Source: Mycobacterium terramassiliense
GTDB lineage: Bacteria > Actinomycetota > Actinomycetes > Mycobacteriales > Mycobacteriaceae
Length of the DNA: 32,000 nucleotides
NCBI RefSeq assembly: GCF_900157385.1
Contig: NZ_LT717700.1
Span: forward strand, 673,818-705,817
Direction: 5' to 3'
This document shows, piece after piece, positions 3,201-25,832 of this stretch. The notes below the pieces were generated by a model. That model saw only the letters and a program-made list of their open reading frames with translations, had not been told where the DNA came from and ran no database searches. The position numbers and the translations under genes are program-made. Within the stretch, counting starts at the first letter, position 1, and the number at the start of each line of letters is the position of its first letter.

Positions 3201-4895
3201 ATGACAAATCCTCGAGACCCTGCGCAGCCGTCGGCCGCCACCGGGCAACCGCGCAAGCCCGTCCTGCTGACCGTCGACGACGATCCCTCGGTCTCGCGCG
3301 CGGTGGCCCGGGACCTGCGCCGCCAGTACGGCGACCGGCACCGCATCGTGCGCGCCGAGTCGGGCTCCGACGCCCTGGAGACGCTCAAGGAGCTCAAACT
3401 GCGGGGCGAGACCGTCGCGGTGCTCATCGCCGACTACCGAATGCCGCAGATGAGCGGGATCGAGTTCCTCGAGCAGGCGATGGACCTCTACCCGGCGGCG
3501 CGGCGCGTCCTGCTGACCGCCTACGCCGACACCCATGCGGCCATCGACGCGATCAACGTCGTCGACCTCGACCACTACCTGCTCAAGCCGTGGGACCCGC
3601 CGCAGGAAAAGTTCTACCCCGTCGTCGACGGGCTGCTGGACGCCTGGCGGGCGGCGCCGGAGCATCCCATCCCGCACACCAAGGTGATCGGGCACCGCTG
3701 GTCGGAGCGGTCCTGGCAGGTGCGCGACTTCCTGGCCCGCAACGGCCTGCACTACTCGTGGTTCATGGCCGACGACCCCGACGGCGAGCGGTTGCTGAAG
3801 GCCGCCGGCGCGGATTGCCTGCGGCTGCCCGTCGTCGTCACCGAACGCGGCGACACCCTCGTCGAACCCACCGACGCGCAGCTGGCCGACACGCTGGGCC
3901 TCACCACCACGCCGTCGCAGGCGTTCTATGACCTGATCGTCATCGGCGGCGGGCCCGCGGGCCTGGCCGCCGCCGTCTACGGTGCGTCGGAGGGGCTGCG
4001 CACGGTCCTGATCGAGCGCACCGCGACGGGCGGTCAGGCCGGCCAGAGCTCGCGGATCGAGAACTACCTCGGCTTTCCCGACGGGGTGTCGGGCGGCCAG
4101 CTGGCCGAACGCGCGCGCAGGCAGGCCGAGAAGTTCGGCGCGGAGCTGATCACCGCCCGCGCCGCCACCGCGCTGGAGGTCAACGGTTCCAAGCGCACGG
4201 TGCGGTTCGCCGACGGTGGCTCGATCGATGCGCACTCCGTCATCCTGGCCACCGGCGTCGCGTACCGGCAGCTGTCGGCCCAGGGATGCACCGAGCTGAC
4301 CGGCCGGGGCGTCTACTACGGGGCGGCCGTTTCCATCGCGACGGAGTGCGCCGGCGAGGAGGTGTACGTGATCGGCGGGGCCAACTCCGCCGGGCAGGCC
4401 GCGATGTATCTGTCCCGCGAGGCGAAATCCGTGACGATCGCCGTGCGCGCCGCGTCCCTGGAGTCGTCGATGTCCTACTACCTGATCGAGCAGATCAGGC
4501 AGCGGCCCAACATCACCGTGCGCACCTGCACCGAGGTGCAGCGCGCCGTCGGCAACGACCATCTGGAAAGGCTGACCCTGGTCGACAACCGGACCGGCGA
4601 CACCGAGGACGTCACCTGCGCCCGGATGTTCATCTTCATCGGCGCCGCCCCGCGCACCGAGTGGCTGGACGGGGTGGTCGCCCGCGACGACCGCGGCTTC
4701 ATCCTCACCGGACCGGACCTGCGCAACGTGTGCGGCTGGACGTTGGACCGCCCGCCGCACCACCTGGAGACCAGCGTGCCGGGCGTGTTCGCCACCGGCG
4801 ACGTGCGCGCCGAGTCCGCCAAACGCGTCGCGGCAGCCGTCGGCGAGGGGTCGATGGCCGTGATGCTGGTGCACCGCTACCTCGCCGAAGCATGA
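3201..4895 (+). CDS. fused response-regulator receiver / glutaredoxin-like linker / thioredoxin-reductase-like FAD-NAD(P) oxidoreductase
   Basis: The protein is 564 aa. The receiver motifs are LLTVDDDPS, the acceptor Asp in VLIADYRMP (gac 3432-3434), LLTAYAD and LLKPW. The C-terminal half carries DLIVIGGGPAGLAAAVYG (FAD), VYVIGGANSAGQAAMYL (NAD(P)H) and VFATGDVR, as in TrxR-family flavoenzymes. Confidence 0.85.
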   Translation: MTNPRDPAQPSAATGQPRKPVLLTVDDDPSVSRAVARDLRRQYGDRHRIVRAESGSDALETLKELKLRGETVAVLIADYRMPQMSGIEFLEQAMDLYPAARRVLLTAYADTHAAIDAINVVDLDHYLLKPWDPPQEKFYPVVDGLLDAWRAAPEHPIPHTKVIGHRWSERSWQVRDFLARNGLHYSWFMADDPDGERLLKAAGADCLRLPVVVTERGDTLVEPTDAQLADTLGLTTTPSQAFYDLIVIGGGPAGLAAAVYGASEGLRTVLIERTATGGQAGQSSRIENYLGFPDGVSGGQLAERARRQAEKFGAELITARAATALEVNGSKRTVRFADGGSIDAHSVILATGVAYRQLSAQGCTELTGRGVYYGAAVSIATECAGEEVYVIGGANSAGQAAMYLSREAKSVTIAVRAASLESSMSYYLIEQIRQRPNITVRTCTEVQRAVGNDHLERLTLVDNRTGDTEDVTCARMFIFIGAAPRTEWLDGVVARDDRGFILTGPDLRNVCGWTLDRPPHHLETSVPGVFATGDVRAESAKRVAAAVGEGSMAVMLVHRYLAEA

Positions 4896-6379
4896 CCGCC
4901 AAGACGCCCTGCCGGCCCGACGAACTGCGCAGCCTGTTCCTGTTCGAGGCCCTGACCGACGAACAGCTGGCGACGCTGTGCGCCGACGGGCAAATCCAGG
5001 AGTACGAACCCGGCCCGATCTGCGTCGAGGGCGAACCCGCGACGTGCTTCTACGTCCTCATCGAGGGCGAGCTGGTGATGTCGAAGCTCTCCGGCGGGCA
5101 GGACATCGAGACCAACCGCACGTCGCAGCGCGGGGTGTACTGCGGCGCCTGGCAGGCGTTCACCGGCGAGCAGCAGCAGGCCTACAGCACCTCGGTGCGG
5201 GTGACCAAGCCGTCGCGGTTCTTCGTGCTGGACGCGCCCGCGTTCGCCCGCTTCATGCAGGACCAGTTCCCGATGGCGGTCCACCTGCTCGACGGGATCG
5301 CCGTGGGCACCGAGCGGACCCGGCGGATCATCGACAACCGGGAGAAGCTGCTGGCCCTGGGCCAGTTGTCGGCCGGGTTGACCCACCAACTGAACAACCC
5401 CGCCGCGGCCACCGTCCGGGCCGCCGCCGAGCTGCGCGAGCGGGTCGCCGGAATGCGCCAGAAACTGGCGATGCTCGCCGACGGGACCGTCACGCCCGAG
5501 GCGCTGCGCGCCCTGGTGCGGCTGCAGGAGGAGGTGGCGGCCCAGGTCGCCAAGTCGGCGTCGGCGAACCTGTCGGCGATCGAGACCGCCGACCTCGAGG
5601 ACGCCGTCGGCGAATGGCTCGACGAGCACGGCGTCGAGGGCGGTTGGGACATCGCCCCGACCTTCGTCGAGGGCGGCATCGACACCGCGTGGCTGGAGAG
5701 GATCGCCGCGACGACCGACGAACTCGACGCGTCGACCTCGCTGGAAAAGGCGATCCGCTGGCTCACCTACACCGTCGAGGGCGAGCTGCTGCTGAACCAG
5801 CTCCTGGAGGCGAGCAAGCGAATCTCGGCGCTGGTCGCCGACGCCAAGCAGTACTCGCAGATGGACCGGGCGCCGTTCCAGGTGGCCGACGTCCACGAAC
5901 TGCTGCGCAGCACGCTGACGATGTTCGCCGACCGGCTGGGCAAGGACGCCACGAAGGACGCGCCCGCGATCACGGTGGTCAAGGACTTCGACAAGTCCCT
6001 TCCCGAACTCCCTTGCTACCCAGGCGATCTCAACCAGGTGTGGACCAACATCATCGACAACGCCCTCGCCGCGATGCGCGACGGGGGCGGCACGCTGACC
6101 ATCCGCACCTGCCGGGAAGGCGAGAAGATGGCGCGGGTCGAGATCCGCGACACCGGACCGGGGATCCCCGACGACGTGCGCGAGCGGATATTCGAGCCGT
6201 TCTTCACCACCAAGCCGGTCGGCGAGGGGACGGGGCTGGGGCTGGACCTGGCGTGGAACATCGTCGTCAAGAAGCATCGCGGGGACCTGCGGGTCGAATC
6301 CGTACCCGGCGACACCCGGTTCATCGTCCTGCTGCCGCTCGAGCTCCCGCCCGCCGTCGACGTGAGTTTTCCGGAATAG
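4892..6379 (+). CDS. sensor histidine kinase with an N-terminal cyclic-nucleotide-binding-like domain
   Basis: The start ATG at 4892 overlaps the upstream TGA (ATGA, 4892-4895). The N-terminus LFLFEALTDEQLATLCADGQIQEYEPGPICVEGEPATCFYVLIEGELVM resembles a CAP/cNMP-binding beta-roll. The H-box is LSAGLTHQLNNP (His codon 5384-5386), the N-box is WTNIIDNALAAM, G1 is IRDTGPGIP, the F-box is FEPFFTTK and G2 is GTGLGLD. The 5' part of track ORF 4286..6379 is an out-of-context extension. Confidence 0.85.
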   Translation: MTAKTPCRPDELRSLFLFEALTDEQLATLCADGQIQEYEPGPICVEGEPATCFYVLIEGELVMSKLSGGQDIETNRTSQRGVYCGAWQAFTGEQQQAYSTSVRVTKPSRFFVLDAPAFARFMQDQFPMAVHLLDGIAVGTERTRRIIDNREKLLALGQLSAGLTHQLNNPAAATVRAAAELRERVAGMRQKLAMLADGTVTPEALRALVRLQEEVAAQVAKSASANLSAIETADLEDAVGEWLDEHGVEGGWDIAPTFVEGGIDTAWLERIAATTDELDASTSLEKAIRWLTYTVEGELLLNQLLEASKRISALVADAKQYSQMDRAPFQVADVHELLRSTLTMFADRLGKDATKDAPAITVVKDFDKSLPELPCYPGDLNQVWTNIIDNALAAMRDGGGTLTIRTCREGEKMARVEIRDTGPGIPDDVRERIFEPFFTTKPVGEGTGLGLDLAWNIVVKKHRGDLRVESVPGDTRFIVLLPLELPPAVDVSFPE

Positions 6380-6408: not shown

Positions 6409-7254
6409 ATGACCGCCTCTGACGCAAGCAAACCCAACCTCGGCCGGTTCGGATCGTTCGGACGCGGCGTGACGCCCCAGCAAGCCAAAGAGATCGAATC
6501 CGTGGGTTACGGGGCCGTCTGGGTGGGCGGTTCCCCGCCCGCCGAGCTGGCCTGGGTGGAGCCCCTGCTCGAGGCCACCACCACGTTGCAGGTGGCCACC
6601 GGCATCGTGAACATCTGGACCGCGGCCGCCGGGCCGGTGGCCGAGTCGTTCCACCGCATCGACAAGGCCTACCCCGGCCGCTTCCTGTTGGGCATCGGCG
6701 TCGGCCATCCGGAGGCGCACACCGAGTACCGCAAGCCCTACGACGCGCTCGTGGGATATCTGAACCAGCTCGACGAGTACGGCGTGCCGGCGAACCGGCG
6801 CGTCGTGGCGGCCCTGGGCCCCCGGGTGCTGAAGCTGTCGGCCGAACGCGCCGCCGGCGCGCACCCCTACCTGACCACTCCCGAGCACACCGCGCAGGCC
6901 CGCGAGCTGATCGGCCCGTCGGCGTTCCTGGCGCCCGAACACAAGGTGGTGCTGACCACCGACGCGGAACAGGCCCGGGCGGTGGGCCGCAAGGCGCTCG
7001 ACATCTACTTCAACCTGGCCAATTACCGCAACAACTGGAAGCGGCTGGGCTACTCCGAGGAGGAGGTCGTGCGCCCGGGCAGCGACCGCCTGGTCGACTC
7101 GGTGGTGGCCTACGGCACGCCCGAGCAGATCGCCGCGCGGCTCAACGAGCACCTCGACGCGGGCGCCGACCACGTGCCCGTGCAGGTCCTCACCAAGGAT
7201 GAAAACCTGGTGTCGGCGCTGGCCGAATTGGCGGGGCCGCTCGGACTGAACTGA
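6409..7254 (+). CDS. luciferase-like (LLM) family oxidoreductase, probably F420-dependent (Rv3463-like)
   Basis: The 281-aa protein starts at ATG 6409, in the same frame as track ORF 4978..7254. It contains GYGAVWVGGSPP...LQVATGIVNIWTA...GRFLLGIGVGH...GAHPYLTTPEHT...VVAYGTPEQIAARLNEHLDAGADHV. It lies next to rmlB-rmlC, as Rv3463 does in M. tuberculosis. Confidence 0.8.
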   Translation: MTASDASKPNLGRFGSFGRGVTPQQAKEIESVGYGAVWVGGSPPAELAWVEPLLEATTTLQVATGIVNIWTAAAGPVAESFHRIDKAYPGRFLLGIGVGHPEAHTEYRKPYDALVGYLNQLDEYGVPANRRVVAALGPRVLKLSAERAAGAHPYLTTPEHTAQARELIGPSAFLAPEHKVVLTTDAEQARAVGRKALDIYFNLANYRNNWKRLGYSEEEVVRPGSDRLVDSVVAYGTPEQIAARLNEHLDAGADHVPVQVLTKDENLVSALAELAGPLGLN

Positions 7255-7275: not shown

Positions 7276-9166
<1,891 letters not shown>

Positions 9167-9167
9167 C

Positions 9168-9776
9168 ATGGCGGCGCGCGAGCTCAAAGTCAAAGGCGCC
9201 TGGGAGATCACCCCCACCATCCACGGCGATTCCCGTGGCATGTTCTTCGAATGGCTGACCGACCGCGCGTTCACCGAGTTCGCCGGCCATCGGCTACACG
9301 TCCGGCAGGCCAACTGTTCGGTGTCCGCGGCCGGCGTGCTGCGTGGCGTGCACTTCGCACAGGTGCCCCCGAGCCAGGCGAAATACGTGACCTGCGTGTC
9401 CGGTTCGGTCTTTGACGTCGTCGTCGACACCCGGGTCGGCTCCCCGACTTTCGGCCAGTGGGACTCCGTCCTGCTCGACGACAAGGACCGCCGGACGATC
9501 TACATCTCCGAGGGCCTGGGGCACGGGTTCCTTGCGCTGCAAGATAATTCGACGATCATGTACCTGTGTTCGTCGGAATACAACCCGCAGCGCGAGCACA
9601 CCATCTGCGCCACGGACCCGGAGCTGGCGATCGACTGGCCGCTGGTCGGCGGCGCCACCCCCACGCTGTCCGACCGCGACGCCGCGGCGCCCAGCTTCGA
9701 GGAGGTGCGCGCCTCCGGCCTCCTGCCCACCTGGGAGGAGACGCAGCGCTTCGTCGCCGGGCTGCGCGATACGTGA
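9168..9776 (+). CDS. rmlC: dTDP-4-dehydrorhamnose 3,5-epimerase
   Basis: The sequence MAARELKVKGAWEITPTIHGDSRGMFFEWLTDRAFTEFAGHRLHVRQANCSVSAAGVLRGVHFAQVPPSQAKYVTCVSGSVFDVVVD... closely resembles mycobacterial RmlC. The start lies 1 nt after the rmlB stop. Confidence 0.93.
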   Translation: MAARELKVKGAWEITPTIHGDSRGMFFEWLTDRAFTEFAGHRLHVRQANCSVSAAGVLRGVHFAQVPPSQAKYVTCVSGSVFDVVVDTRVGSPTFGQWDSVLLDDKDRRTIYISEGLGHGFLALQDNSTIMYLCSSEYNPQREHTICATDPELAIDWPLVGGATPTLSDRDAAAPSFEEVRASGLLPTWEETQRFVAGLRDT

Positions 9777-9783
9777 GCGATCG

Positions 9784-10245
9784 ATGAGACGCGGGGTGCT
9801 GATCGCCATCGCGACCGCGGCCGTCGCCACGGGCCTGGGCGGCTGCGCCAAGGGCGACAACGCTTCGAGCGCAACATCTTCCAGCGCGACCCCATCCGGC
9901 ACTGCCGCCGCGGCCGGGCCGGTGCGGGTCACCATCGGCGGCCAGCCCCACAACGTCAGCGGCCCGGTGGTGTGCGGCACGAACAACGGCAAGTTCTCTA
10001 TCGCGGTCGGAGACATGGCCACCGGCATCATCGTCGGGCTCGAGCCCGACGCGTCGGTGGTGCACGGCGCGGGGCTCGGCACCGTCGACGGGGTGGTCAT
10101 GAGCTTTACCGAGGGGGTGCCCGGCGAAAACGCCACCGCCACCAAGACGGGCAGCACCTACAAGATCACCGGCACGGCCAGCGGCACCGACAACGCCGGG
10201 GCCCAGGTGCACAAGCCTTTCGAAGTCAACGTCACCTGCCCGTAG
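9784..10245 (+). CDS. LpqH-like (19-kDa antigen family) lipoprotein
   Basis: The 153-aa protein has the signal peptide MRRGVLIAIATAAVATGLGGC with a lipobox (LGGC), then a Ser/Thr/Ala-rich linker. The domain ...VTIGGQPHNVSGPVVCGTNNGKFSIAVGD...YKITGTASG...FEVNVTCP is typical of the LpqH family. Confidence 0.75.
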   Translation: MRRGVLIAIATAAVATGLGGCAKGDNASSATSSSATPSGTAAAAGPVRVTIGGQPHNVSGPVVCGTNNGKFSIAVGDMATGIIVGLEPDASVVHGAGLGTVDGVVMSFTEGVPGENATATKTGSTYKITGTASGTDNAGAQVHKPFEVNVTCP

Positions 10246-10262
10246 CCGAGTATCCTTCGCCC

Positions 10263-17463: not shown

Positions 17464-18891
17464 TCAGCTCGGGTTACAGGAGAGTTCGGCGGCCATCAGC
17501 TGGTCGAGCTTGCCGGCCGTGGTCGATAGCGCCGAGCGGGCGATGCGCAGGATCCGATCCCGCACCCGGGGCTTCGCCGACGCCGGCGCCAGCAGATGGC
17601 CCATCAGATGACCGAACAGGTCCAGGCGCGCCGTGGCAAGCCAGGCGGTCAGGTCCGGGTCGTCGAGCCAGCGCAGCTGATTGCCGTAGTCGGCCCGCGC
17701 GACGCGCAACCAGTCCAGGTCGCTGTCGGGATGCGGCAGCGGCGGGCATAGCGCGTTTTTCGCGGCGTCGTCGGGGCAGGCGGTCTCGAGGTGAGCGATC
17801 AGCGCCGCGCTGAATATCTGCTGGCACCCACGCACACTCTGCAACGTGATGTGGCCCGGACCGAAGATCGGTGTGGCGGGCCGCTTCTCGGCCCCGTCGG
17901 CGGTGCAGTCGACGTACAGCGCCGGGACCTCCGTGCGGACGGCGCCGCCCTCGAGGACCATTCCGTCGCCGTCGACGCGCAGCAGGTGGCCCATGCGCAC
18001 GACGTCGGTGATGCGCCGCAGCTGCTCCAGCTCGGCGTGGGTGACGGTGGCGCAGCGGTACATGGTGGGGCGGATCGCCGGGTCGATCCGCAGCAGCGTG
18101 CCGGCGTCCTCGAGGCGGGAGAACAGATCCTCGACCGAGGTCGCATCCCGGACGGCCCGCAGCTGGGCGGTGAAGGCGGCCTTGATCCGGTCGGCGAACA
18201 ACGATCCCGGCTGGATCGTCGCGCGATCCAGCAGCCATGAGTCCCGCGGCATGATCCAGGTCAGCCGGTCCGCCGCGATGCCCTGCCCCAGCAGCCACAG
18301 GCAGGTGTCGATGCCGGTCTTGCCCGCCCCGACGATGACGTAGCGCTCACGGGCCGCGAGCCGCGGCAGGTCGTTGGGCGGCACGCACGTGACGCCGGGC
18401 GCGACCTCGTACGGGGGCGGGCGCATCGAGGGAACCTCGACGCGCATGTAGGTGGCGTCGACGACGCGGCGCGTGACGTCGACGGCGTAGTCGGCCCCGC
18501 CGAGCGTCGTGAAGCGGCCCCGTAATCCGTCGCTGCCGCGGTACTCGCTCATCGGGAAGTAGGAGACGCGGCCGGTGGGCAGGAAGCGCCGGCGCAGGAC
18601 GTGGTCGTAGTACGCGCAGACCTCACCGGCGGTCGCCAGCTCGTAAAGCCCCTCGTTCCAGCCGACCTGGTCGATGGCGTCGCTACCCAGGGGCAGCGAG
18701 TTGACGCCGTAGAACGCCGACGGCTGGTGCAGCCGTACGAACGGGTACGCCGTGGTCCAGTGCCCACCCGGCTGGTGGTGGCGATCCACCAGCACCACGC
18801 GGGCCCGCGTCTCGGTGAGCAGCGTGTCGAGGAACGCCATGCCCATGGCGCCCGCCCCGACCACCAGGTAGTCGGCATCGATGGTGTGCAT
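17464..18891 (-). CDS. FAD/NAD(P)-binding oxidoreductase (two-dinucleotide-binding-domain flavoprotein)
   Basis: The 475-aa protein has two Rossmann motifs, DYLVVGAGAMGMAF and RYVIVGAGKTGIDT. No closer family assignment is possible by eye. Confidence 0.7.
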   Translation of the reverse strand: MHTIDADYLVVGAGAMGMAFLDTLLTETRARVVLVDRHHQPGGHWTTAYPFVRLHQPSAFYGVNSLPLGSDAIDQVGWNEGLYELATAGEVCAYYDHVLRRRFLPTGRVSYFPMSEYRGSDGLRGRFTTLGGADYAVDVTRRVVDATYMRVEVPSMRPPPYEVAPGVTCVPPNDLPRLAARERYVIVGAGKTGIDTCLWLLGQGIAADRLTWIMPRDSWLLDRATIQPGSLFADRIKAAFTAQLRAVRDATSVEDLFSRLEDAGTLLRIDPAIRPTMYRCATVTHAELEQLRRITDVVRMGHLLRVDGDGMVLEGGAVRTEVPALYVDCTADGAEKRPATPIFGPGHITLQSVRGCQQIFSAALIAHLETACPDDAAKNALCPPLPHPDSDLDWLRVARADYGNQLRWLDDPDLTAWLATARLDLFGHLMGHLLAPASAKPRVRDRILRIARSALSTTAGKLDQLMAAELSCNPS

Positions 18892-18933
18892 ACGGGGTCA
18901 AGGCTAACCCGGCCGCCATCGTGGCGGTCGCGG

Positions 18934-20049
18934 TCACGCCGCCCGGGCCTCGACCACGCTGAGCGGAGCAGCGGTGTGCACCACCCGGGTGACTCGGAAT
19001 CCGGCCTGGCCGAGTAGATCTCGGTACTCGGAGGCGGTGCGTTCGCGGGCCCCCAGGTTCAGCAGCATTTCCAAATCCACCCACTTTCCCGGGAAGTCAC
19101 GGTCGTGCCCGGGAATGACCAGTTCGACCAGCAGCACCGTGGCGTGCGGGCCGGCCGCGGCGCGCACGTTACGCAGGATCTGCACCGCTTTGTCGTCGGG
19201 CCAGTCGTGGACGATGTTCTTGAGGATGTAGGCATCGCCGCCGCACGGAACGCTGTCGAAAAAAGAACCCGCTGCGAGGCGGACGCGGTCGGCGACGTTG
19301 CTCTCGCGCAACAGCTTTGGGGCCTCGGCGATCACGTGGGGCAGGTCGTAAAGTACGCCCCGCGACGCAGGCGCTCCCGCCAGGATGGCGGCCAGCAGCG
19401 GTCCGTGCCCGCCGCCCACGTCGACGATCGTGGGGTAGGCACCGAAGTCGTAGCCGGCGACCACCGGCCCGTCGGTCAGCGCCGAAACGCTCGTCATCGT
19501 GCGGTTGAAGAGGTTGGCGAGCTCGGGGTACCGGTCGAAGTAGTCGAAGCTCGCCTCCCCGCGCAACGCCGGGACGACCGTCCTTCCGGTGCGGATCGAG
19601 TCGACCAGCAGGGTCCAGCGTTCGCGCTGTTCGGCCGAGCCGTAGAACTGCGCCGCCCACGTCATCGAGATCGGCGCATCCGAACGCAGCGTTGCGGCAA
19701 GGGAATTCAGCTCGTAGCGCCCGTCGCGGCGATGACGGAAGATGCCCTTGCCGATCAACGCCCGCAGCAGCCGGCCCAGCGCGTCCGCGTCGGCGCCCAC
19801 CCGGGCGGCCAGCTGCTCGATCGGCAGCGGGCCGTCCGCCAGGGCGTCGGCGACGCCGAGTTGGGCCGCCGCGGTGATGGCCTGCGATGTCCAGTTCGCA
19901 ATGATCAGCTCCATCATCGCGGCCGGCGCGGGTGTCAGCCGTTGATGCAGCCGGTACAGGTGGTGGCGAATCCACTCCACGGCGCGGGCCAGCGTGGCGG
20001 GCGGCACCCTGGTGGTCCTGTCGGCGGCCGTGTTGGTCGAAGACGTCAT
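18934..20049 (-). CDS. SAM-dependent O-methyltransferase (family 2, with an N-terminal dimerisation/winged-helix domain)
   Basis: The 371-aa protein has SAM motif I (TIVDVGGGHGPLLAAIL), then DLPHV and YILKNIVHDWPDDKAVQIL, typical of small-molecule O-methyltransferases. The ATG overlaps the upstream stop (ATGA at 20046-20049). Confidence 0.8.
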   Translation of the reverse strand: MTSSTNTAADRTTRVPPATLARAVEWIRHHLYRLHQRLTPAPAAMMELIIANWTSQAITAAAQLGVADALADGPLPIEQLAARVGADADALGRLLRALIGKGIFRHRRDGRYELNSLAATLRSDAPISMTWAAQFYGSAEQRERWTLLVDSIRTGRTVVPALRGEASFDYFDRYPELANLFNRTMTSVSALTDGPVVAGYDFGAYPTIVDVGGGHGPLLAAILAGAPASRGVLYDLPHVIAEAPKLLRESNVADRVRLAAGSFFDSVPCGGDAYILKNIVHDWPDDKAVQILRNVRAAAGPHATVLLVELVIPGHDRDFPGKWVDLEMLLNLGARERTASEYRDLLGQAGFRVTRVVHTAAPLSVVEARAA

Positions 20050-21284
20050 GTGGCATCGACAAGACGGGGGGTCGCCGCGAGGTCACTGCTGACCTTGGCG
20101 GAGATCCGGCGGTGACTCACCGCGCACAGAAACGTCGTGAGCGCCCAGGTCATGACGCGGTCCGAGATCATCCCCGCCGGCCTCAGCGCGGACTCGCTGC
20201 GGGAGACCTGCTGCGTGGTCACCCAGGACACCGCGCCGACCTTGCGTCGCCTGGTGTTCTCGTACCAGCGCAGCGCGGCCGAGAGATCCCGGACGTTGCC
20301 GCGTGCCCCCCCGCGGCCCGTGCGGGGATGCGAAAGCGCCTGGCACAACACCATCGTGTCGAGCAGCGCCTGATTGGTTCCCTGCGCCAGGGTCGGCGGC
20401 ATCGTGTGTGCGGCGTCGCCCAGCAACGTGACCGGCCCGTGCCCCGGGCCGGGAATCGGATGCCGGAAATGGGGGAACGGCGAAGGGGCCAGATCCCCGT
20501 CGGTCAACGCCGCGAGTACGCGGTCAGCCGCCTCCGACCATCCCCCGAAATGGGACCGGATCATCTCGATCGGGCGTTGTGGTCTGACGAAGTCGTGCGA
20601 CCACGGCAGGTCGAACCACCACTGCAGCTGCGAACCTCCGGCCGGCCACAGTCCGAGGTTTCCGTGCTCGCCGATGATCATCTGAGCGGCGTGCCTGTCG
20701 CCGATGTCGGGCAGGCTGACCAGCCCCTGCCAGCTGCACCAGCCGGTCGATTTCGCCGGTGGCGCACCGACGACGCCGCGAACCATCGAGTGCAGGCCGT
20801 CCGCACCGATCAGCAGGTCTCCGTCGGCCGAGCAGCCGTCTTCGAACTCGATCCGAATTCCGTTGTCCGTGTTGACCACCCCGGCCGCACGGCTGTTGCA
20901 GCGGATGCGATCGAGCGGAAAGCCTTCCAACAGCCGTTCCAGCAGGACTCGACGCGGGACCATCCGAACCGGCGCTCCCAGCCGGTCGATGATCGCGGTC
21001 AGGTCGACGGTGGCGACCGAGCGGCCGCTCGGTGTGTTCACCCGCACCGTGGACAGTGGCTGACCGGCCCCATCCATCTCGACCCCCAGCTGCCGCAGAA
21101 CGGTCGAGCCATTGGACCAGATGGTCACGGCGCCGCCGCCCGCAGTCACCTCCGGTCGCCGTTCGAAGACGGTGACGTCGTGTCCGTCACGCAATAATCC
21201 CCGGGCGGCGGAGATGCCGCCCACGCCGGCGCCGACGATGAGGATCCTGAGCTTGTTGGAATGGCTCACTTCGGTCCCCGGCAT
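20046..21284 (-). CDS. FAD-dependent aromatic-ring monooxygenase (group A flavoprotein hydroxylase-like)
   Basis: The 412-aa protein starts at ATG 21284, 5 nt after the aminotransferase stop. It carries LRILIVGAGVGGISAA (GxGxxG), LLIGADGLHSMVR (DG motif) and VTLLGDAAHTMPPTLAQGTNQALLD (GD motif). The track ORF extends further 5', overlapping the upstream gene. Confidence 0.8.
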   Translation of the reverse strand: MPGTEVSHSNKLRILIVGAGVGGISAARGLLRDGHDVTVFERRPEVTAGGGAVTIWSNGSTVLRQLGVEMDGAGQPLSTVRVNTPSGRSVATVDLTAIIDRLGAPVRMVPRRVLLERLLEGFPLDRIRCNSRAAGVVNTDNGIRIEFEDGCSADGDLLIGADGLHSMVRGVVGAPPAKSTGWCSWQGLVSLPDIGDRHAAQMIIGEHGNLGLWPAGGSQLQWWFDLPWSHDFVRPQRPIEMIRSHFGGWSEAADRVLAALTDGDLAPSPFPHFRHPIPGPGHGPVTLLGDAAHTMPPTLAQGTNQALLDTMVLCQALSHPRTGRGGARGNVRDLSAALRWYENTRRRKVGAVSWVTTQQVSRSESALRPAGMISDRVMTWALTTFLCAVSHRRISAKVSSDLAATPRLVDAT

Positions 21285-21289
21285 CCCGA

Positions 21290-22333
21290 TCAGCCCCGCG
21301 CCCTGTCCACCGCGGCCAGCACCGCTCTCGTAGACGCGCGGCTTGCGACGGTGATCCGGGCGGCGCCGTCGGGGTAGTAGCGGGCCGTCAGCCCGGTGTC
21401 GCCGAACACCTCTCGCCATGCTCGCGCGACGGCGGGGAGGTAAACGAAGTTGGCGTGCCCGCCGGTGGTGTACACGCCCTTCGCGCGAAGGCGCCGGGAC
21501 AGGAAGTCGCGCTCACCGGTGATCCGCAGGACGCGTTGCCGCAACTGGTCTTCGGCGTCGTAGCACGCCGCGACCGCGACCAGGCTGGTGATGCCCATGC
21601 CGAACGGCAGCTGCATCTCCCACAGGGTCGCGGCCAGCGCCGGTGAAGAGAACCCGTACCCGACGCGAAGCCCGGCCAGGCCATAGGCCTTCGAGAAGGT
21701 CCGCACCACAACGACGTTCGGGAATTGCCGGATCAGGTCGGGTCCGTCGATGCGGAGCCGGGGGGAGACGAACTCGATATAGGCCTCGTCGAGCAGGACG
21801 ATCGTGTCGTCCGGCACCTGCCGCAGGAATCGCTGCACGTCCGCGACGGGCTCCAGGGTGCCCGTCGGGTTGTGGGGCCGGCACAACACCACCACGCGGG
21901 CGTCCGCCGCCGCTTCGGCCATGGCGCCCAGGTTGTGGTGGCCGCGAGCGTCGAGCGCAACGGTGACCGGTGTGAGGCGGGCCATCCGGGCGAAGATCGG
22001 GTACCCGTCGAAAGTCGGCTCGCTCAGCACAATCCGATCGCCGGGCCGCGTCATCGCGTGCAGGATCTGCATCACGACTCCGCTGGCGCCGGCTCCGAGC
22101 ACCACTTGCTCGTCGCACACCCCGATGTGACCGGCGACCAGGCGGCGCAGCCGTTCGGGCAGGAACTCCGGGTACCGGTTGGCGACGTCGATGGAGCGGA
22201 TCAGCGCCGAGCGCACCGCCGGCAGCGGCGGAAACGGGTTCTCGTTGAGCGACAAGGCGAATGGATCGCTCGCGATCGGCAGCGCATCGAGGATCTCGGC
22301 GGTGACGGGGCTCGCCGCCAGCAAGGGCAACAT
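21290..22333 (-). CDS. class I/II PLP-dependent aminotransferase (HisC / aromatic aminotransferase-like)
   Basis: The 347-aa protein contains LSLNENPFPP, CRPHNPTG, LLDEAYIEF and RTFSKAYGLAGLRVGY, the last holding the PLP-lysine motif SKxxGLAGxRxGY. Confidence 0.85.
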   Translation of the reverse strand: MLPLLAASPVTAEILDALPIASDPFALSLNENPFPPLPAVRSALIRSIDVANRYPEFLPERLRRLVAGHIGVCDEQVVLGAGASGVVMQILHAMTRPGDRIVLSEPTFDGYPIFARMARLTPVTVALDARGHHNLGAMAEAAADARVVVLCRPHNPTGTLEPVADVQRFLRQVPDDTIVLLDEAYIEFVSPRLRIDGPDLIRQFPNVVVVRTFSKAYGLAGLRVGYGFSSPALAATLWEMQLPFGMGITSLVAVAACYDAEDQLRQRVLRITGERDFLSRRLRAKGVYTTGGHANFVYLPAVARAWREVFGDTGLTARYYPDGAARITVASRASTRAVLAAVDRARG

Positions 22334-23352
22334 CAGCTTCGTCCTCCCCAGCGCAGGGCCGCCGCGCCCGCGAAGTCGCCGGCGTGGGCGAAGGCGGCCA
22401 TCATCACGACGTCACCGGCGTTCAGCCGACCGTCCGATATCGCGCGATCCAGGTTGATCGGGATGCCGGCGCCAAACAGGTTGCCGCACTCGTCAAAAGT
22501 GTCGACGTGTCTCGATTCGGGAACCTCCAGCGCCTCGCGCCAATTGCGCAGGAACACCCGGTTGGGTTGGTTGGTCACCAGCAGGTCGATGTCCTTGGAC
22601 GCCAAGCCGATTCGATCACAGACGGCCAGCGCCACCTCGGGGACCTGCCGATTGCCCCGCGCAAGCACCTTGGTGATCTTGGATTCGGTGAACCCGATGG
22701 AGGCTTCACCCGGCCCGGGCTGCCACCACTTGCGGGGCGGGTCGATGGCGAGCGTCATGTCACCGGCGTATTCGCCGTAGGTGCGGCACTCGACATCCAG
22801 GATCGGGGATTCATCCGAGAGCGTCACCAATCCGACGGCGGCGCCGTCACCGGGGACCGCGGCCTGCGCCTTGCGCCGCACCCCCGGCTGGTCGAAGGCC
22901 TGGCCGGCGGCGTTCTGGGCGATCGCGACCAGCGCGGTGCTCCCCTGTCCGGACGCGAGCAGTTGACGGGCCACGTTGAGCGCCAGCACGAACGCCGCGC
23001 AGCCACCGTTGTGCAGATCCAGCACCGAGCTCGGGCGCATGCCCAACCGGTGCGCGATGCTGCCCCCCCCGCCATAGAACGGCATGTCGGGCATTTGCGC
23101 GTGGGTGATCAGCACGTCGACGTTGGCAATGACGTCGTGGCCGTGCCGTTCGATCAGCCCCTGGGCCGCGCGCTCGATCATGTCGGTCGCGGTTTCGTCC
23201 GGGCCGACGTGATGGCGGAACTTGGGCGCGCGGAACATCAGGTTGGCCGCCAGGTCGTCCGAGCCAGCGAACTGCGCGTAATAATCGGCGCCGATCGGTT
23301 CGCCGGGCAGGTAGGTGGACACGTCGGCCAGGCTGACGGTGGGTCGGTTCAT
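22333..23352 (-). CDS. KAS III (FabH)-like thiolase-fold enzyme with an atypical catalytic triad
   Basis: The 339-aa protein starts at ATG 23352, which overlaps the upstream stop (ATGA at 23349-23352). The active-site Cys lies in LHNGGCAAF (C118). The FabH PHQAN box reads TNQPN (Asn261, codon 22570-22572). The GN box is conserved as ECGNLFGAGIP (N291). Confidence 0.8.
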   Translation of the reverse strand: MNRPTVSLADVSTYLPGEPIGADYYAQFAGSDDLAANLMFRAPKFRHHVGPDETATDMIERAAQGLIERHGHDVIANVDVLITHAQMPDMPFYGGGGSIAHRLGMRPSSVLDLHNGGCAAFVLALNVARQLLASGQGSTALVAIAQNAAGQAFDQPGVRRKAQAAVPGDGAAVGLVTLSDESPILDVECRTYGEYAGDMTLAIDPPRKWWQPGPGEASIGFTESKITKVLARGNRQVPEVALAVCDRIGLASKDIDLLVTNQPNRVFLRNWREALEVPESRHVDTFDECGNLFGAGIPINLDRAISDGRLNAGDVVMMAAFAHAGDFAGAAALRWGGRS

Positions 23353-24020
23353 GAGGTGCTCATCCATTCCGGCGTGACGGGCAAGCCGTTGCGGTGCCGG
23401 TACTCGGCGATTGACTTGAGGTTGTTCAGTTCCAGCCCGTGGCCGGCTCCGAAGATGTCCCAGAAGTCGCCTACCCAGCCGGTGCGCTCCGGCGGGGCGG
23501 CCTCGGGATACGGGTTGTGGTCGTAGAAGGGGTGGCGGCAATTGGTCCACAGCACAACGGAACCGGGCTTGCCGAGCACGACCTGTGCGTCGAGCACCCG
23601 CATCAGGTAGATCATCCACAGGTGCTCGCCCTGGTCCCAGGCGCAGTGGTAGTCGACGGTGCGGGCCTGCGCGTTGGACACCGTGCGCGTGTAGATCTTG
23701 GTGTCCGGAAGCAACCGGTCGTAGGCCAACCAGAGCCCGGGCTCCCCGGTGGGGGTGAAGTCGCGAAGGGTGTAGGTCCACTCCTCGAGGCTGCGGGTGT
23801 CGGCCAGGTATTCGAACAGCTCGTCGGGTGGGCAGTCGACGTAGTCGTTGACCGTGCAGTACTGCCCGAAGACCTCGTCGTGCGGGTAGACCGATCGCAT
23901 CTTCGCCATGAACATCGGGGCGGTTTCCTCGAGCGGCGAGGTCTCGATGCGGACCACTCCCTCGATCGGCCGGGTGGTGCCGCTGTGCACGGCGATATCG
24001 TCAAGCGCTGCTATGGACAT
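23349..24020 (-). CDS. hypothetical protein (223 aa), conserved-looking, family not recognisable by eye
   Basis: The sequence reads MSIAALDDIAVHSGTTRPIEGVVRIETSPLEE...YCTVNDYVDCPPDELFEYLADTRSLEEWTYTLRDF...DYHCAWDQGEHLWMIYLMRV.... The composition is coding-like and not Arg/Gly/Pro junk. The ATG lies inside the last 10 nt of the ThDP gene and is preceded by GGAGAA. Confidence 0.6.
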   Translation of the reverse strand: MSIAALDDIAVHSGTTRPIEGVVRIETSPLEETAPMFMAKMRSVYPHDEVFGQYCTVNDYVDCPPDELFEYLADTRSLEEWTYTLRDFTPTGEPGLWLAYDRLLPDTKIYTRTVSNAQARTVDYHCAWDQGEHLWMIYLMRVLDAQVVLGKPGSVVLWTNCRHPFYDHNPYPEAAPPERTGWVGDFWDIFGAGHGLELNNLKSIAEYRHRNGLPVTPEWMSTS

Positions 24021-25759
24021 GTAATCGGTTCTCCTTTTTGCGGTGTGATCTGTTGTTCGGCCACGTGATTGGCGGGCTTGCGGTTGAGGAACGCCGCGAA
24101 CGGGGGGATTTCGTCGGCGGCGCACTCGACGCTGACCACGGCCGGGCCGTCGACCGCCAGTGCCCGTCGCAGTGCGGCGGCAAGCGCGTCGGGGTCGGCC
24201 ACGTCGACCGCGCACAGCCCGGGGAACATCGCCGCCAGGCCGGCCGCCAGCCGGCTGGGAGCAAACCGGTTGTAGCTGTAGAGGTCGTCGTAGAACAGCT
24301 GCTCGCGGGTCACGCACATGGCGTGGGCGTTGTTGTTGAACAGCACGAAGGTCACGGGCAGCCGGTACTGCACGGCGGTGTGCACCTCCATGCCGTGCAT
24401 GAAGAACGCGCCGTCCCCGGCGATCACGACGGTGCGCCCGCCGGGGCGCCCGCTGCCGGCCCGCCCGAAGGCCATCCCGATGCCGGCACCGAAGCTGTAA
24501 CCCATACCCCCCATGCCGAGTGCGACCGCGAAGCGGCCGTCCCGCCGCGCCGGCAGGTAATGGATCGCGGCCGCGCCGGTGTTGCCCGCGTCGACGACGA
24601 TGTCGGTCCCGCCGGGCAACGCGCTGTCCAGCGCCACCATGGCGTCCCGGTAACGCACGCCCGTGCCGGCAAAGGATGGTGGGCTGAGCTCTGTGCCCGC
24701 AACGAAATCGGGCACGCGCAGCCCCCGTGCCCGCCCCGGCCCGGACAACGCCCTGGTCAGCATCGTCAACGAACCCCGCAGATTCTCGGTGTGCACATGC
24801 GTGCACGGCAGGTAGGGCGCGGCGGAGCCGAGCGAGACCGTCCGCACCGCGGCGAGCGCGTCGTCGAGGCCGGCGCGGGCCGTCACCGACAGCCGGGTGC
24901 CGACCACCAGGCACACGGCGCTCGCGGCGACCGCGTCGGCCACACCGGGATGACCCATCACACCCGTCACGCCGAGCGCGGAAGAGGAACCGAAACCCGG
25001 CGTGCCGGCGACATCTTTGGCGTCGGGCACGCATGCCACCTGGGCACGCAGCAGGGCGCGCAACTCCTCGAGTTCGGCCCGGGCGTCGTCACGCGCGACC
25101 TGTTCGCCGGCGATGATGGTGACAGGCCCCTTCGCTCGCCGCAGGGCGCGCACGATCGGGTGCGGATCGCCGATGCTCGCCCCCGGGTGCTCCGCGCCGC
25201 GCCGATCACCACCTCCGTAGCCATCGATGTCCACCTTCGCCTGCTGAATATCCTTGGGCAGCAACAACACCGCCGGGCCGCCGGCGCGCGCCGCCGCGAT
25301 GGCGCTGGGCAACGCCGAAACGATGTCGGCGGGCGTCAGGACCCGCCGGCAAAAGACCGAGACCGCAGAGAACAGCGCCTCGGCGTCCAGGGAACCGTTG
25401 CGGCCGCTGGTGTCCTGGAAACTGCCCCGACCATCCATCGTGGTAGCGGGCTGACCCACCAATGCCAACACCGGCACCCGGCTGGCCAATGACTCCCCAA
25501 GGCCCGGAATGAGATTCAGCGCGCCTCCGCCGGATGTCGCCGCCACCACGCCCAAACCGGCGCCGCTGCGGCTATACCCGTCGGCCATCGTGGCCGCGGA
25601 GAACTCGTGCTTCGCCAATACCGCGGTGATGTCCGAATTGAAATGTGCGGCGTCGTAAAGATCTTCGATATTGGCGCCGTCGACGCCGAAGATGTAATCG
25701 CTGTCGATTCTCGCGAGGTATTCGACGATGTGGTCGACCACCCTGTGTTGCCTGGGCAT
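24011..25759 (-). CDS. thiamine-diphosphate-dependent enzyme (acetolactate-synthase / acyloin-forming family)
   Basis: The 582-aa protein has the N-terminal PYR domain (DYIFGVDGANIEDLYDA...ATMADGYSR...GVVAATSGGGALNLIPGLGES) and the C-terminal ThDP motif IAGDGAFFMHGMEVHTAVQYRLPVTFVLFNNN (GDG...NN). An AGGTGAG SD precedes ATG 25759. Confidence 0.85.
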   Translation of the reverse strand: MPRQHRVVDHIVEYLARIDSDYIFGVDGANIEDLYDAAHFNSDITAVLAKHEFSAATMADGYSRSGAGLGVVAATSGGGALNLIPGLGESLASRVPVLALVGQPATTMDGRGSFQDTSGRNGSLDAEALFSAVSVFCRRVLTPADIVSALPSAIAAARAGGPAVLLLPKDIQQAKVDIDGYGGGDRRGAEHPGASIGDPHPIVRALRRAKGPVTIIAGEQVARDDARAELEELRALLRAQVACVPDAKDVAGTPGFGSSSALGVTGVMGHPGVADAVAASAVCLVVGTRLSVTARAGLDDALAAVRTVSLGSAAPYLPCTHVHTENLRGSLTMLTRALSGPGRARGLRVPDFVAGTELSPPSFAGTGVRYRDAMVALDSALPGGTDIVVDAGNTGAAAIHYLPARRDGRFAVALGMGGMGYSFGAGIGMAFGRAGSGRPGGRTVVIAGDGAFFMHGMEVHTAVQYRLPVTFVLFNNNAHAMCVTREQLFYDDLYSYNRFAPSRLAAGLAAMFPGLCAVDVADPDALAAALRRALAVDGPAVVSVECAADEIPPFAAFLNRKPANHVAEQQITPQKGEPITCP

Positions 25760-25793
25760 CTGCTCACCTAACTTGGGTATCTGCTTCTAACAC

Positions 25794-25825
25794 GACCCCC
25801 GGGTGACTTCAGTTCACCCGGGGTC
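25794..25825 (-). terminator. GC-rich hairpin between the rslA-like stop and the ThDP gene start (candidate terminator or attenuator)
   Basis: The arms gacccccgggtga (25794-25806) and tcacccggggtc (25814-25825) form a 12-bp stem with one bulged C and a 7-nt loop. On the transcript the hairpin is followed by UGUUAGAAG. It begins 8 nt after the rslA-like stop codon. Confidence 0.5.
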
Positions 25826-25832
25826 GAAAGAT

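Follow-up and report, generated by a model that had tools for sequence, protein, structure and literature searches.

A soluble histidine kinase and a receiver–flavoprotein fusion as a predicted two-gene, non-transcriptional signaling module in Mycobacterium terramassiliense

A 32,000-nucleotide (nt) stretch of the Mycobacterium terramassiliense genome (assembly GCF_900157385.1, contig NZ_LT717700.1, positions 673,818–705,817 of the forward strand; hereafter the window, in whose positions all coordinates are given) carries two overlapping genes that, judged by sequence, form a self-contained, two-gene, non-transcriptional two-component system. The first open reading frame (ORF A) encodes a response regulator in which a receiver is fused to a thioredoxin reductase (TrxR)-like flavoprotein lacking the redox cysteines of TrxR, and the second (ORF B) encodes a soluble histidine kinase. 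Since only these two genes are conserved together and no other output domain is found in them, the output of the module is most likely regulated flavin chemistry, a reading that we favor on balance. Nearly all two-component outputs that are well understood either regulate transcription or work on second messengers, chemotaxis or partner switching. Were a phospho-relay to end in a pyridine-nucleotide flavoprotein, signal sensing would be tied directly to redox metabolism.

The two genes and their parts are as follows:

3201–4895, plus strand: ORF A, response regulator–flavoprotein fusion of 564 amino acids, with a receiver (REC), a mycoredoxin-like domain and a CxxC-less TrxR-like domain.
3258–3602, plus strand: receiver, residues ~20–134 (Pfam Response_reg, residues 23–134).
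3432–3434, plus strand: codon of the acceptor Asp78, in IADYRMP (residues 76–82).
3672–3896, plus strand: glutaredoxin (Grx)/mycoredoxin-fold domain, residues ~158–232 (structural model and profile match).
3699–3713, plus strand: W167-S-E-R-S171, at the place of the CxxC of the Grx-like domain (profile alignment to WCGYC).
3927–4889, plus strand: TrxR-fold domain for flavin adenine dinucleotide (FAD) and NAD(P)H, residues 243–563 (Pfam Pyr_redox_2, residues 243–550).
4308–4331, plus strand: GVYYGAAV, residues 370–377, in place of the redox CxxC segment (alignment to TrxR 7jyp).
4892–4895, plus strand: ATGA stop/start overlap of A and B, read directly.
4892–6379, plus strand: ORF B, soluble histidine kinase of 495 amino acids.
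4925–5296, plus strand: CAP/cNMP-binding-like sensor domain, residues ~12–135 (Pfam cNMP_binding).
5132–5200, plus strand: degenerate phosphate-binding cassette, residues 81–103 (alignment to Escherichia coli CRP).
5333–5443, plus strand: DHp helix 1 with the H-box GLTHQLNNP (HisKA positions 2–29 match residues 156–183).
5384–5386, plus strand: codon of the predicted phospho-His165, in the H-box.
5444–5785, plus strand: conserved insert of ~115 residues between DHp helices 1 and 2, residues 185–298 (gap in the CckA alignment).
5786–6343, plus strand: DHp helix 2 and catalytic ATP-binding domain with N, G1, F and G2 boxes (Pfam HATPase_c, residues 379–484).

The start codon of the kinase gene (ATG, 4892–4894) lies over the stop codon of the regulator gene (TGA, 4893–4895), as a first-pass annotation, made by a model from the sequence alone, had read it. 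That annotation had also taken the two proteins as a cognate pair, and had staked its model on their being neighbors in other genomes as well. A survey in which one genome per species was scanned bears this out. It yielded 80 loci with full-length REC-type relatives of the regulator, spread over eight phyla (Actinomycetota, Cyanobacteriota, Chloroflexota, Acidobacteriota, Gemmatimonadota, Planctomycetota, Dormibacterota and Pseudomonadota), and in 78 of these loci a kinase ortholog, aligning over residues ~10–484 of B, is encoded no more than 6 kb from the regulator. The kinase gene is immediately adjacent in 74 loci, being located on the same strand and at most 113 nt downstream in 72 of them and abutting the regulator gene upstream in the other two. 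With kinase starts in the orthologous loci assigned approximately, stop and start codons overlap in ~45 loci, including ~25 with the 4-nt overlap found here. All-against-all clustering of the neighboring ORFs from the 80 loci gave no third gene that is conserved with the pair. The data thus support A and B as a cognate, translationally coupled pair. Two paralogous CAP-type kinases are encoded near the regulator in four loci (L003, at 7440–10565, L053, L057 and L078); these are arranged in tandem in Mycolicibacterium austroafricanum, present as two copies in two cyanobacteria, and placed one on each side of the regulator in Caballeronia.

The receiver of A scores 53 bits against Response_reg (cutoff 30.2) and contains the residues of receiver phospho-chemistry: the acidic DDD at 26–28, D78 (the acceptor already named in the first-pass annotation), T106 and K129, which are kept in all 80 orthologous loci. 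It is most similar to receivers from NosR-type and HD-domain-type regulators, which have enzyme outputs. The Pfam domains of A are Response_reg and Pyr_redox_2 (the latter with E = 5e-34), in agreement with the earlier statement that the regulator has no DNA-binding output. The kinase, in turn, resembles HisKA kinases such as NtrB, CckA and ZraS. Residues 150–178 of B align to residues 4–32 of CckA, and residues 301–483 align to structures of CckA, NtrB and ZraS, with an E-value of 1e-20 to CckA (5idj). The H-box, with H165 in GLTHQLNNP, is nearly invariant in the orthologs and is followed by N390, DTGPG at 420, FEPFFTTK at 434 and GTGLGL at 446, corresponding to the N, G1, F and G2 boxes; HATPase_c is matched with E = 2e-22. 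Unlike these kinases, B carries a ~115-residue DHp insert and a CAP-fold sensor, and has no PAS domain, HAMP domain or transmembrane segment. Kyte–Doolittle profiles revealed no membrane-like segment in either protein (maximal 19-residue means of 1.52 for A and 1.16 for B), and the kinase is therefore predicted to be soluble, as had been proposed.

The C-terminal module of A has the fold and the cofactor sites of a TrxR. An AlphaFold model of A, built from a 54-sequence alignment (pLDDT 92.3, pTM 0.87), superposes best on TrxRs, for example 5mh4 (in the FR conformation), with TM-scores up to 0.95, and the last TrxR helix (H543–563 in the model) forms the C-terminus of the protein. Among 54 divergent family members, the FAD motifs (GGGPAG, GGQ and GD) and the NAD(P)H motif (GGANSAGQ) are invariant or nearly so, the residues concerned being G249/G251/P252/G254, G277-G278-Q279, G392/N395/S396/A397 and G533-D534, which argues for a working flavoprotein. 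In an alignment to E. coli TrxR, just one of the three Arg residues that bind the 2′-phosphate of NADPH is presumably kept in A (R416). The redox-active cysteines, by contrast with the cofactor sites, have been lost throughout the family. The 150 best representatives from a library of 1.84 billion proteins were compared; 120 sequences contain the complete core. None of the 150 has a CxxC at the flavoprotein site, and neither position is occupied by Cys in any of the 120 complete sequences or the 80 loci. Here, the family shares the motif G-x-G-V-(Y/F)-Y-G-A instead, with Y373 conserved in 113 of the 120. A single semi-conserved cysteine, Cys383 (codon 4347–4349), is located where the helix expected to hold the CxxC ends; it is kept in 76 of the 80 kinase-linked regulators and is not kept in the pseudo-receiver relatives.

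The region between the receiver and the flavoprotein, previously described as a glutaredoxin-fold-like linker, turns out to have a genuine thioredoxin/glutaredoxin fold. Residues 160–231 form a beta-alpha-beta-alpha-beta-beta-alpha arrangement in the model, and a profile of the region matches Mycobacterium tuberculosis mycoredoxin-1 (PDB 2lqo; E = 3.5e-7). Pfam Glutaredoxin was detected in 7 of 30 family members. This domain is cysteine-free too: neither CxxC nor CxxS is present at its active site, where W-S168-E-R-S171 in A (WSxRS in the family consensus) stands against the W-C-G-Y-C of mycoredoxin-1. Without cysteines, the Grx-like domain cannot carry out thiol chemistry.

Together, these features suggest the following course of events. 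The soluble kinase would sense a cytoplasmic small molecule via its CAP-fold domain, in which the cyclic-nucleotide pocket is non-canonical, and this domain would control autophosphorylation of the kinase at His165. The phosphoryl group would subsequently pass from His165 to Asp78 of the regulator, and phosphorylation of the receiver would alter the activity of the fused flavoprotein. In TrxR-fold enzymes, as established for TrxR, turnover needs the NAD(P)H domain to rotate against the FAD domain, and restraining or releasing this rotation is therefore a plausible allosteric route: a changed packing of the receiver and the cysteine-free mycoredoxin-like domain on the TrxR-fold module could alter this movement. 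With its FAD and NAD(P)H motifs kept and its redox cysteines lost, the flavoprotein would not act as a TrxR; the reaction itself would be NAD(P)H-dependent flavin chemistry, rather than reduction of thioredoxin or disulfides by the TrxR mechanism. Of this scheme, the analysis shows the domain anatomy, the lost cysteines, the conserved coupling of the two genes and the lack of a further conserved partner, whereas phosphoryl transfer, the way in which control runs, the route of allostery and the existence of an acceptor and a ligand are inferred.

Control might also run in the opposite direction. The flavoprotein would then be a sensor of the NAD(P)H/NAD(P)+ ratio or of the flavin redox state that tunes phosphorylation or dephosphorylation of the receiver, or itself docks on the DHp insert of the kinase, making the regulator a redox-gated phosphate sink or a protein–protein effector instead of a regulated enzyme. 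Loss of the four redox cysteines of a TrxR-Trx-type ancestor, with retention of the cofactor sites, is typical of enzymes that have turned into sensors. Moreover, the conserved, unexplained insert is located at the regulator-docking end of the DHp, and pseudo-receivers without a kinase make up most of the family. However, the module consists of only two conserved genes and has no further output, so a pure sensor would control nothing, and the conservation of the GVYYGA motif, including Y373, at the former active site suggests a catalytic or ligand site. We therefore regard reversed control as unlikely, if well short of negligible, and retain regulated flavin chemistry as the preferred reading.

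The insert that such a sensor might contact, like the lost CxxC and the degenerate cassette of the sensor domain, had escaped the first-pass annotation. The CckA alignment of B jumps from residue 178 to residue 301, and only positions 2–29 of the 66 in the HisKA hidden Markov model find a match, so ~115 residues must be inserted between the two DHp helices. Consequently, B does not contain a contiguous DHp helical hairpin of ~65 residues; helix 2 resumes ~120 residues later, and His165 and the N-box Asn390 are separated by 225 residues, about twice the usual distance. The insert is gap-free in all 78 kinase orthologs from the eight phyla, which share the motif SD(R/L)ED..WL..HG...W.LAPT.V.AG.D..WL, and a profile of it yielded no meaningful match in the PDB or Pfam (best E = 1.1). 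It may be helical, an assignment of low confidence that comes from a single-sequence AlphaFold model of the kinase (pLDDT 36). One might speculate that the insert contacts the flavoprotein part, allowing the kinase to read the flavin or NAD(P)H redox state of its own substrate and turning the output domain into a second input. We think this quite unlikely; if true, a small-molecule signal received by the CAP domain would be combined in one module with the redox state of the cell, as read by the cysteine-free TrxR/mycoredoxin relic, a design without described precedent.

In the wider family, the core made up of the Grx-like and the CxxC-less TrxR-like domain occurs alone, behind a CAP-family domain, or behind a receiver-like domain without the acceptor Asp. 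In the direct CAP–core fusions, a CAP-family domain was found in 7 of 7 tested. In a further, metagenomic member of 714 amino acids (P0247), a receiver and the Grx-like/TrxR-like core are joined by a cNMP domain at the C-terminus, whose cassette (PRTAS) is canonical, so that both regulatory inputs would act on one flavoprotein. Since the core is fused either to a CAP domain or to both a receiver and a cNMP domain, it has been placed repeatedly downstream of small-molecule sensor domains, which speaks for the preferred reading. Two observations count against it. First, canonical receiver residues are found in just 5 of the 120 complete-core representatives, meaning that the majority of its members evidently function without being phosphorylated. 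Second, the CAP domain of the kinase shows no specific relationship to the CAP domains of the direct fusions (15.6 bits at most), and the two architectures are therefore alike in logic and not by descent. For the same reason, domain shuffling was rejected as the origin of the kinase CAP domain. The phospho-competent, kinase-linked form is thus one slowly evolving clade in a larger family of regulated flavoproteins, and CAP-type sensing upstream of the core seems to have arisen more than once.

For receivers without the acceptor Asp, no adjacent kinase was found in the two genomic contexts that are long enough (those of P0249, locus L081, and P0275), in favor of the preferred reading; most other contexts of pseudo-receivers and CAP fusions are on short contigs, so the association between loss of Asp78 and loss of the kinase is based on few cases. 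A gene for a rhodanese domain is located just upstream of P0275 (weak Pfam match) and of P0280 (locus L082, a 3-kb contig), and the context of P0275 further includes a Frankia_peptide gene and a gene for an FAD monooxygenase.

The most obvious candidates for the signal would be cyclic AMP (cAMP) or cyclic GMP (cGMP), because the sensor domain of the kinase is matched by Pfam cNMP_binding (PF00027, residues 42–124) with 36.5 bits, above the gathering cutoff of 27.5. Of the CAP/cNMP-binding-like sensor that the first-pass annotation had placed at the N-terminus, the domain itself stands, whereas binding of these two nucleotides is made unlikely by its degenerate cassette. E72 of E. coli CRP, the ribose-binding Glu, is opposite A86 in B, and R82, the phosphate-binding Arg, is opposite Y98; among 79 sequences (B and its 78 orthologs), these positions hold Ala in 52 and Tyr in 61. 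A canonical Glu/Arg cassette (GE...PR[ST]A) is present in only one of the 79 kinases, from an Anaerolineae genome (L063); this cassette and that of the extra domain of P0247 are the other points in favor of cyclic nucleotides. By sequence, the best structural relative of the sensor domain is DNR, of the CRP/FNR family, many members of which bind ligands other than cyclic nucleotides. With Glu and Arg both replaced, we consider cAMP or cGMP an improbable signal, and the ligand is likely another molecule.

The databases suggest yet another function. The names given to A by PGAP are 'fused response regulator/thioredoxin-disulfide reductase' or 'FAD-dependent oxidoreductase' (B being named 'histidine kinase' or 'ATP-binding protein'), and the PGAP and JGI names, the TrxR fold and the best PDB sequence matches, which are TrxRs (7jyp being the best, E = 7e-46), would be in keeping with a phosphorylation-regulated thioredoxin-disulfide reductase. 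Like the low-molecular-weight TrxRs (7jyp, 5mh4 and 2a87), A has the two-domain FAD/NAD(P)H fold, at ~30–33% sequence identity, and the GxGxxG, GGQ, GxGxxA and GD motifs. Unlike them, it has two extra N-terminal domains, and GAAV at the position of CAxC (CAAC in 7jyp). Its score against the thioredoxin-disulfide reductase model TIGR01292 is 220.8 bits, far from the cutoff of 343.45, and that against the AhpF model TIGR03140 is 174, with a cutoff of 502.9. The first-pass annotation had likewise spoken of a TrxR-type oxidoreductase; fold and cofactor motifs bear out that description, but the disulfide-reductase type does not survive. Because the CxxC is missing family-wide, A is not a thioredoxin-disulfide reductase of the TrxR type, the TrxR mechanism of disulfide reduction being excluded by the missing cysteines, and the Grx-like domain lacks its cysteines as well. 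We hold the annotated function to be very improbable.

Other flavoproteins of this fold provide closer or more distant parallels. AhpF and the NTRC-type TrxR-Trx fusions also combine a thioredoxin-fold domain with a TrxR-like flavoprotein, and the Foldseek list for the model of A consists of AhpF and TrxR entries, headed by AhpF 4xvg with 574 aligned columns; the superposition is nevertheless poor (root-mean-square deviation 25, TM-score 0.38). AhpF passes electrons between CxxC motifs present in both of its modules, while both sites are cysteine-free in A. The YumC-type ferredoxin/flavodoxin-NADP+ reductases (3lzw, 2zbw and 3ab1) resemble A in having a TrxR fold without CxxC, and their equivalent site has a comparable G-x-G-V-(H/Y)-Y motif. 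Their similarity to A is, however, far weaker (E-values of 1e-12 to 1e-17, versus 1e-46 for TrxRs), and the model of A lacks their C-terminal extension with its FAD-stacking aromatic residue. The Grx-like domain resembles mycoredoxin-1 (Rv3198.1) and NrdH-type glutaredoxins in its fold and in having a cis-Pro loop (LPVV against TVPTV), differing from mycoredoxin-1 in the WSERS that takes the place of its WCGYC active site. No member of the family is present in the PDB, where the nearest entries are TrxRs at 30–33% identity.

As a whole, A resembles regulators such as CheB, PleD/WspR, RpfG and those of the RsbU type, in which the receiver gates a fused enzyme and not a DNA-binding domain; A would follow the same logic. 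What sets it apart from these is the output, a flavoprotein of the pyridine-nucleotide oxidoreductase class, for which no characterized precedent was found in the literature searched. The architecture itself has been catalogued before: fusions of a receiver to a TrxB-like domain are a recognized type of response regulator (PMC5847659, PMC9953108), and a cyanobacterial census includes a 'TrxB' (pyridine nucleotide-disulphide oxidoreductase) class, in which TrxB regulators occur in a single strain, the only one in the census table that has a cNMP_binding kinase as well (PMC9953108). A has the same architecture as these 'TrxB'-type regulators and is a member of the type without any difference, and the fusion itself will not surprise the specialist. 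In the full-text literature searched, TrxB-type regulators were found only in such census mentions, and we found no functional study and no account of a partner kinase, a kinase insert or the missing CxxC. Together with the generic PGAP names, this agrees with the earlier remark that such fusions are labelled generically and functionally uncharacterized.

The module is a worthwhile and tractable target for its two-gene composition, its mis-annotation and two further unexplained features, namely the conserved insert of the DHp and a CAP pocket that is non-canonical. It is small and soluble, and its conservation reaches from mycobacteria and streptomycetes as far as cyanobacteria and acidobacteria, so a single biochemical study would annotate thousands of genes. 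ORF A has more than 8000 homologs, and ruling out thioredoxin reductase already corrects a widespread database name.

The window has a GC content of 67–71% and a mycobacterial gene order, with rpsD, rpsK and rpsM on the minus strand, followed by rmlB, rmlC and PE-PGRS genes. ORFs A and B lie upstream of two tandem genes for luciferase-like oxidoreductases. The first of these (6409–7254) starts 29 nt past the kinase stop codon, with no terminator predicted in the gap; as it is not conserved with the pair in the 80 loci, it was rejected as a component of the system. The second (7276–8142, plus strand; LLM class) contains an in-frame stop at ~7402–7404, where it reads 'AVWIG*SPD' against 'AVWVGGSPP' in the first copy, and is either a pseudogene or affected by a sequencing error. 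This stop, and the absence of the pair from the equivalent position in M. tuberculosis, might suggest that A and B, inserted between infA and an Rv3463-like gene, are themselves a remnant that is decaying or no longer functional, but we give this little credence, since both ORFs are intact and 82–97% identical to many mycobacterial orthologs (the closest homologs being from slow-growing Mycobacterium, including M. paraense, M. nebraskense, M. scrofulaceum and M. malmoense), and their catalytic and cofactor motifs are conserved across phyla.

Further downstream, a PE-PGRS gene (12712–14382, plus strand) encodes PE and PGRS regions and a C-terminal aspartyl-peptidase-like domain (Pfam); just upstream of it are a PE-like ORF (11228–11953, plus strand) and another ORF (11712–12623), which together span 11228–12623. 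A run of minus-strand genes at 17464–29307 encodes an O-methyltransferase, an FAD monooxygenase, a class I/II aminotransferase, a KAS-III-like protein, a thiamine pyrophosphate-dependent enzyme, a FAD_binding_4 oxidase and a flavin-containing monooxygenase (FMO)-like protein, and may represent a cluster for small-molecule biosynthesis or modification.

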